Sequence record: PP301343.1 | Strand: one strand, 5' to 3' | Origin: Escherichia phage UE-M6 | DNA: 64,000 bases | Shown here: positions 61,351-61,369 of the stretch, piece by piece | Numbering within the stretch: the stretch's first letter is position 1 | Layout of the letters: the number at the start of each line of letters is the position of its first letter | The notes under the pieces: model-generated | The model's database searches: none | What the model was told of the DNA's origin: nothing | Seen by the model: the letters and a program-made list of their open reading frames with translations, nothing else | Translations under genes and position numbers: made by a program

Positions 61351-61369
61351 CATAACATGCGGAGCATGT
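61351..61369 (-). promoter_or_regulatory. Putative N4-type vRNAP hairpin promoter
   Basis: Template-strand hairpin acatgc-GGA-gcatgt with TCCATAAC flank; loop-centre G at 61362; predicted +1 about 61351. Confidence 0.5.

Follow-up and report, generated by a model that had tools for sequence, protein, structure and literature searches.

The DNA analysed here, referred to as the window, is a stretch of 64,000 nucleotides from Escherichia phage UE-M6 (PP301343.1). Its last 4 kb match the G7C-like coliphages (Gamaleyavirus, Schitoviridae), with 99.6-99.8% identity to UE-S5a, UE-M3, UE-S5b, PBM-2 and PBM-3. Compared to the usual map of N4 the window is inverted: its early genes have high coordinates and are encoded on the - strand, for which the + strand is the template. 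The features of this region, together with the gene of the virion RNA polymerase (vRNAP), are collected in Table 1.

Table 1. Predicted promoters, genes and other features of the window
Feature	Coordinates	Strand	Basis or remarks
Virion RNA polymerase (vRNAP) gene, 3456 aa	14417..24787	+	67% identical to N4 gp50
RNAPII subunit gene	56068..56886	-	Downstream of the P3-type site
P3-type hairpin promoter (predicted), AGCTGC GGA GCAGCT	56920..56934	+	+1 C 56916; upstream of the RNAPII subunit gene; 37.6 bits
gp2 homologue	60176..60658	-	68% identical to N4 gp2
P2-type hairpin promoter (predicted), AAGACGC GGA GCGTCTT	60672..60688	+	+1 C 60669; upstream of the gp2 homologue; 40.4 bits
Terminator-like stem-loop after gp1	60945..60972	-	RNA AGGAGGCUC UUCG GAGUCUCCU GUUUUG
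gp1 homologue, first early gene, 107 aa	60989..61312	-	66% identity to N4 gp1, E 6e-51; phrog_5020
Direct terminal repeat stretch of virion DNA	61054..61454	.	Exact 401-bp repeat of UE-M3
Predicted initiation region	61350..61354	+ (template)	Spacing and bases identical to N4 P1 (TCCATAA)
P1-type promoter hairpin (predicted)	61355..61369	+ (template strand)	Sequence reading, orthology to N4 P1

The + strand reads TCCATAACATGCGGAGCATGTGTAAC from 61349 to 61374. Within it, the arms ACATGC (61355-61360) and GCATGT (61364-61369) form a 6-bp stem closed by the three-nucleotide loop GGA (61361-61363), and the hairpin with a central loop G that an earlier note on this DNA had described is thus confirmed. 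Numbered as in N4, the loop centre G 61362 is position -11, flanked by G 61361 at -10 and A 61363 at -12, and the loop is closed by the pair C 61360:G 61364, C 61360 being -9. The G that the same note had placed three positions into the stem is G 61359, at -8. The GC-rich heptamer GCGGAGC (61359..61365) is centred at -11. The predicted +1 is C 61351, 11 nt 5' of the loop-centre G, and +2 is C 61350; with C at both positions of the template, the RNA is predicted to start with pppGG. The spacer ATAA (61352-61355, -1 to -4) shares its last base with the hairpin, A 61355 (-4) doubling as the first base of the stem. The interval 61351-61369, under which the promoter had been noted, begins at the predicted start site and ends with the outermost base of the stem.

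Hairpin promoters of the vRNAP type are textbook knowledge for N4. According to a review of this phage (PMC4496689), they are conserved from -17 to +1 and contain a GC-rich heptamer centred at -11, with inverted repeats on either side; extrusion requires the G:C pair that closes the loop, as well as 5'G and 3'A in the loop itself, and the N4 enzyme reads A or G at -11, G at -10, G at -8 and C at +1, whereas the other stem bases need only pair. Each of the N4 sequence features listed there is found in the P1-type hairpin: an inverted repeat on the template strand, with a stem in the range of 5-7 bp and a 3-nt loop centred at -11; the GC-rich heptamer, with 5'G and 3'A in the loop and a C:G closing pair; and a purine at -11, G at -10, G at -8 and C at +1. 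The calculated DNA folding energy (-4.7 kcal/mol, z = -1.7 relative to shuffled sequences) lies within the range of the shuffles and was rejected as evidence for the hairpin, being uninformative. The nearest-neighbour DNA folding model leaves out the special stability of GCGNAGC mini-hairpins, which is reported in a passage of PMC13037366.

By its size alone the hairpin is unremarkable, as each strand of the 64 kb has 113 perfect hairpins with 3 nt in the loop and 5 bp or more in the stem, and it might on this count be a chance palindrome without function. The full N4 motif (GCG[AG]AGC, 5 or more stem pairs, C at +1) is however present at only 3 sites on both strands together (128 kb), against a mean of 0.02 in 2000 dinucleotide-preserving shuffles, none of which reached 3. 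Taken with the compensatory changes across genera and the match to an independent model (E 1e-4), both presented below, this makes a chance origin so improbable that it can practically be set aside. All three sites are on the + strand, the template of the early genes, no more than 4.5 kb from the genome's left end, and all three have CC at +1/+2.

A relaxed positional scan and a filter-free covariance-model search both failed to reveal a fourth or more outlying promoter in the window, and the P1-type site, 104 nt from the physical left end, is indeed the outermost of three, as had been claimed. A fourth GCGGAGC, at 47541, does not form a hairpin. The relaxed positional scan of the first 7 kb of N4 also found only three promoters; the designation 'P1-P4' is used for N4 in PMC13492108. 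Among the relatives, hairpin promoters vary in number, one IMG/VR genome (L006/L013) having four canonical sites. In G7C, an extra GCGGAGC hairpin is present at position 509, upstream of gp1.1/gp1.2, with a distance of 12 nt, instead of 11, between the C and the loop centre.

The three sites of the window match N4 P1, P2 and P3 one for one in position. On the N4 genome, P1 reads TGTCCATAAGTTGCGAAGCAACGTGTAACGTGTACAAGGTGGGGTAGG, with the loop centre at 96 and +1 at 107, upstream of gp1, and it is a mapped promoter (PMC4496689). The window sequence TGTCCATAACATGCGGAGCATGTGTAACGTGTAAGGTGGGGTAGG aligns with it over the start site, the hairpin and the next 30 nt. Both sites lie upstream of gp1, at a distance of about 105 nt from the left end and within the terminal repeat, and they have in common the flank TGTCCATAA, the CC at +1/+2, the bases -8G, -9C, -10G, -12A, -13G and -14C, and the downstream block GTGTAACGTGTA..AGGTGGGGTAGG. 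They differ in the loop, which is GGA in the window and GAA in N4 (G instead of A at -11), and in the stem, where CATGC/GCATG stands in place of the GTTGC/GCAAC of N4 and the changes at -5 and -6 are compensatory; at -5:-17 the window has C:G and N4 has G:C, and an extra A:T pair brings the stem to 6 bp, compared to 5 in N4. Judged by position and sequence, the hairpin at 61355..61369 is the orthologue of the experimentally mapped N4 P1.

N4 P2, read from the N4 genome as CATCCAAAAGAAGCGGAGCTTCTTC upstream of gp2, is identical to the P2 oligonucleotide printed in PMC13492108, and N4 P3 is TTACCAAAAGCTGCGGAGCAGCTT, upstream of gp15. Both share with the P1-type site the GCGGAGC heptamer, the GGA loop and, at distances of eleven and twelve nt from the loop centre, the C at +1/+2, but they differ from it in the spacer (AAAA instead of ATAA) and in the stem sequences, and their counterparts in the window are the P2-type and P3-type hairpins, the latter being nearly identical to N4 P3. 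The earlier note had ascribed a GGA loop and a similar flank to N4 P2; the N4 genome bears this out, although the true counterpart of the site is N4 P1, with its GAA loop. The flank that it had seen in common with the second hairpin of the window is really shared, but over the 7 nt TCCATAA and not as TCCATAAC, the eighth base being C here and G there. The alignment with N4 P1-P3 that it had proposed as a check was run, and is the one described above.

Elements of the same kind were predicted by similarity to N4 in Klebsiella phage KP8 (P1-P4, PMC6950046) and in phages CB1, CB3 and CB4 of Pectobacterium (PMC6027278). KP8 P1, ACGTTGCTCCGCAACCTATGGA at positions 89-110, is the orthologous site and is present in two of the loci collected below (L024 and L026). 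KP8 differs from the window in its stem sequence and in having four predicted promoters instead of three. In the literature and among GenBank features, we found no description of hairpin promoters in G7C-type coliphages, and the GenBank records of the relatives examined contain no promoter annotation. The literature searches yielded no 5'-end mapping and no in vitro transcription for this phage or another Gamaleyavirus.

To follow the site in other phages, viral contigs were searched with the gp1 protein alone, which kept the hairpin out of the selection. All of the 18 loci obtained have a hairpin upstream of gp1. Its position is the homologous one in 17 loci; in the remaining locus (L015) an insertion has shifted it further from gp1, with the motif kept. 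The stem is CATGC/GCATG in most Gamaleyavirus loci, GTTGC/GCAAC in G7C, N4 and the KP8-like Klebsiella phages, and GACGC/GCGTC in one locus (L028), so that positions -5, -6 and -7 change together with -17, -16 and -15. The bases C+1, C+2, G-8, C-9, G-10, A-12, G-13 and C-14 never change in these loci, and -11 is G in all of them except N4. The non-contacted stem bases therefore vary while pairing is kept.

Covariation was measured on 28 distinct promoter-like sequences from all loci. Double changes were found at 5 of the 7 stem pairs, and the covariation score was 0.461, compared to 0.131 ± 0.027 in shuffles and to at most 0.104 when the partners were slid; C is present at +1 in 27 of the 28 sites. 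As this set had been chosen by the presence of at least 5 stem pairs, its percentage of paired positions is partly circular, and the gp1-anchored loci, free of any selection for pairing, are the cleaner evidence. An exact-pattern scan of viral contigs with the conserved downstream block retrieved only 7 loci and was less useful than the gp1-anchored search.

A short inverted repeat in a regulatory region might also be a palindromic operator, bound as double-stranded DNA by a dimeric protein. The stem bases change freely while pairing is kept, however, whereas the asymmetric GGA loop and the bases at -8 and -9 are invariant and always on the same strand. A free stem with a strand-specific invariant loop fits the recognition of a single-strand hairpin and not that of a duplex operator, which we consider extremely unlikely.

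A covariance model was trained on 22 promoter sequences of other phages, none of them identical to a site of the window, and was run without filters across the whole window. It gave exactly three matches, of 40.4, 37.6 and 27.7 bits (E 7e-8, 4e-7 and 1e-4), the next best match having 10.6 bits (E 3). The P1-type site has the lowest score of the three, because its -5:-17 pair (61356, 61368) is C:G, as in 14 related loci, whereas this pair is G:C in all 22 of the other promoter sequences compared, including the three N4 promoters.

The polymerase expected to use such a site is encoded in the same genome (Table 1), and its polymerase domain, at about residues 972-2076, is 71% identical to that of N4. 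The residues cited for N4 mini-vRNAP were located using N4 gp50 residues 998-2103 as the reference, a numbering verified by the fact that all nine cited positions hold the expected residue. The residues that contact -10 and -11 (K114, R119 and W129) and those of the specificity loop that contact -9, -10 and -8 (D901 and R904) are kept in the product of the window, as are K849, K850, K268 and the catalytic D559 and D951, all of them in identical local context. The sole changed promoter-contact residue among those compared is K267 of the intercalating beta-hairpin, which is Asn in the vRNAP of the window (product residue 1238). This vRNAP should be the enzyme that reads 61355..61369. A crude scan for sigma-70-like sites in 56000..64000 found 10, compared to 26 ± 6 expected, a depletion consistent with the host enzyme not using this region.

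The end of the genome was placed by comparison with relatives. In UE-M3, which is 99.8% identical, the two ends of the record are an exact repeat of 401 bp, and the record ends at a point corresponding to window position 61454. Several relatives' records begin at a position matching 61447-61454, N4 position 1 maps to ~61453, and the boundaries of the 1160-bp terminal repeat of G7C and of the 403-bp DTR of Mimir124 map to 61454-61456. From these record ends and repeat boundaries, 61054..61454 corresponds to the terminal repeat, with the left genome end at ~61454. The predicted +1 is thus 104 nt from the physical left end, compared to 107 in N4, and as the P1-type promoter is inside the repeat, it is present at both ends of the packaged DNA. 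It is in the leftmost part (about 10%) of the genome, upstream of the early genes and oriented inward. The window crosses the terminal repeat in collapsed form and is not colinear with the virion DNA. Beyond the hairpin there are - strand ORFs (61701..63797), which were weighed as a sign that P1 is not the outermost promoter; this was rejected, since they correspond to gp70/gp71-like genes from the right end. The + strand gene that begins at 63969 carries, in UE-S5a, the annotation terminase small subunit.

Between the hairpin and the genome end lie 85 nt (61370..61454) that are conserved from Gamaleyavirus to N4 and the KP8-like phages. They contain the conserved blocks GTGTAAGGTGGGGTAGGGT and GTGTAAGGGTGTAGCCCC, a conserved run of 7-9 G, a direct repeat GTGTAAGG at 61375-61382 and 61432-61439, and a 9-nt inverted repeat GGCTACACC/GGTGTAGCC at 61397-61405 and 61439-61447, which is common to N4 and found only partly in G7C and the KP8-like phages. 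This tip possibly has a role in end recognition, packaging or replication.

The hairpin itself might then belong to a terminal-repeat machinery (as a start or stop of packaging, in the replication of the ends or as a docking site for ejection proteins) and not, or not only, be a promoter. Its place inside the repeat, so close to the physical end, would agree with such a role, as would the strong conservation, as far as N4, of the adjoining G-rich blocks and repeats. The motif recurs, however, at two internal sites outside the repeat, directly upstream of early genes, and its N4 counterpart is a mapped promoter (PMC4496689); in the locus with the insertion (L015), moreover, the hairpin has moved with its motif kept while the flanking terminal blocks differ. 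Such a function of the hairpin is accordingly regarded as very unlikely.

A different and rather improbable idea, to be taken as speculation, is that P1 and the 85-nt tip form one conserved left-end module, in which the fixed spacing of ~104-107 nt from the end might seat the polymerase that arrives first on the ejection complex, with P1 transcription pulling the genome in; the -11G of Gamaleyavirus and the C:G pair at the stem base might then tune the grip of the polymerase.

The transcript predicted from P1 begins with GGACAUGUCGUCC and has a 39-nt leader before the gp1 homologue. The stem-loop after gp1, at 60951..60972 and followed by GUUUUG, is homologous to the hairpin after N4 gp1; it was missed by the terminator scan because only 4 of the 8 bases of its tail are T. 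From +1, the predicted P1 transcript can form a 5' stem-loop GGAC-AUGUC-GUCC (61338..61351, - strand RNA) and the predicted P2 transcript a 5' stem-loop GGAUG-AUUUAAAUG-CAUCC (60651..60669). The N4 transcripts have the same layout (GGACA-UGU-UGUCC and GGAUG-...-CAUCC), and in L028 the +3 base and its partner in the stem-loop change together. These transcript stem-loops show no significance by folding energy alone; they may be hairpins protecting the 5' end or part of the initiation region.

The promoter hairpin could also be thought to act at the RNA level, as an intrinsic terminator or another stem-loop on transcripts crossing it. The P2 and P3 hairpins are indeed flagged as terminator-like, with a T run after them, and transcription of the gp70/71-like genes could run into the P1-type hairpin where the repeat is copied at the right end. 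The latter is nevertheless absent from the list of terminator-like structures, an Rfam search of 56500..64000 gave no match, and at the left end there is nothing upstream to terminate. It is followed by GTAACGTG on the + strand and by TATGGACA on the - strand, and as there is no T run on either strand, a terminator is excluded for this hairpin; the RNA-level reading as a whole is given next to no weight. After the P3 hairpin, the T run UUUGGUUAUU is found 3' on the RNA-sense strand, and the scan therefore lists this hairpin on the - strand, so that the P3-type hairpin might also stop transcripts coming from an upstream promoter; the P1-type hairpin has no T run of this kind. The P2 hairpin (60671..60689) is listed on the + strand, with the tail GTTTTAACTG, and there are no genes on that strand there.

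Several details of the early-gene annotation were noted. The long ORF of the gp2 homologue starts 10 nt past the predicted P2 +1, without a ribosome-binding site, whereas Met34 (~60559) has GGAGAG just before it and the PHROG profile starts at residue 34. The real start of the gp2 homologue is therefore probably Met34, and the same probably holds for the annotation of N4 gp2. A 67-aa ORF (60693..60896, - strand), which has no PHROG match, lies between the terminator-like hairpin of gp1 and P2, where N4 has no gene; as no separate hairpin promoter serves it, its expression would require read-through from P1. Between two RNAPII subunit genes lies a 168-aa ORF (55562..56068, - strand), at the place where an HNH homing endonuclease (gene 15.1) is annotated in G7C. 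The GenBank records of the closest relatives begin inside gp1, at the inner repeat boundary. In UE-S5a (PP175015; region 1..251) an opposite-strand ORF (6..251) is annotated in place of gp1, and in UE-M3 a 36-aa ORF (204..314).

The motif, its rarity, the orthology to N4 P1, the covariance model and the conserved polymerase contacts all support the proposal, made in the earlier note, of an N4-type vRNAP hairpin promoter. We conclude from these sequence comparisons that 61355..61369 is very probably the early promoter P1 of a G7C-like coliphage of the N4 family, a site for the single-subunit vRNAP that is packaged in the virion. On the model of N4, we infer that initiation would take place at 61351 and that it would involve extrusion of the hairpin and depend on gyrase and SSB. 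The left genome end would enter the cell first, together with the vRNAP, and negative supercoiling driven by gyrase would extrude the inverted repeat as a cruciform. The host SSB would then melt the arm on the non-template strand and leave the compact GCGGAGC mini-hairpin of the template intact. The vRNAP would bind the loop, through -11G stacked on the equivalent of Trp129 and through -10G, and would bind the stem at -9C and -8G via its specificity loop. The four-base spacer would set the distance, so that RNA synthesis would start opposite C 61351, and the pppGG transcript would run leftward, in window coordinates, through the gp1 homologue and probably end at the stem-loop at ~60950.

This type of hairpin promoter is already known from N4 and has been predicted in related phages; 61355..61369 is a further case, and the P1-type site opens no new question. 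It adds a natural variant of N4 P1, with G at -11, a C:G pair at -5:-17 and a 6-bp stem, which agrees with the rule drawn from mutagenesis of N4, by which reading is confined to the loop, -8/-9 and +1 and the remaining stem need only pair. For the annotation of these phages, marking P1-P3 and the true genome end would correct the early-region maps of the relatives.
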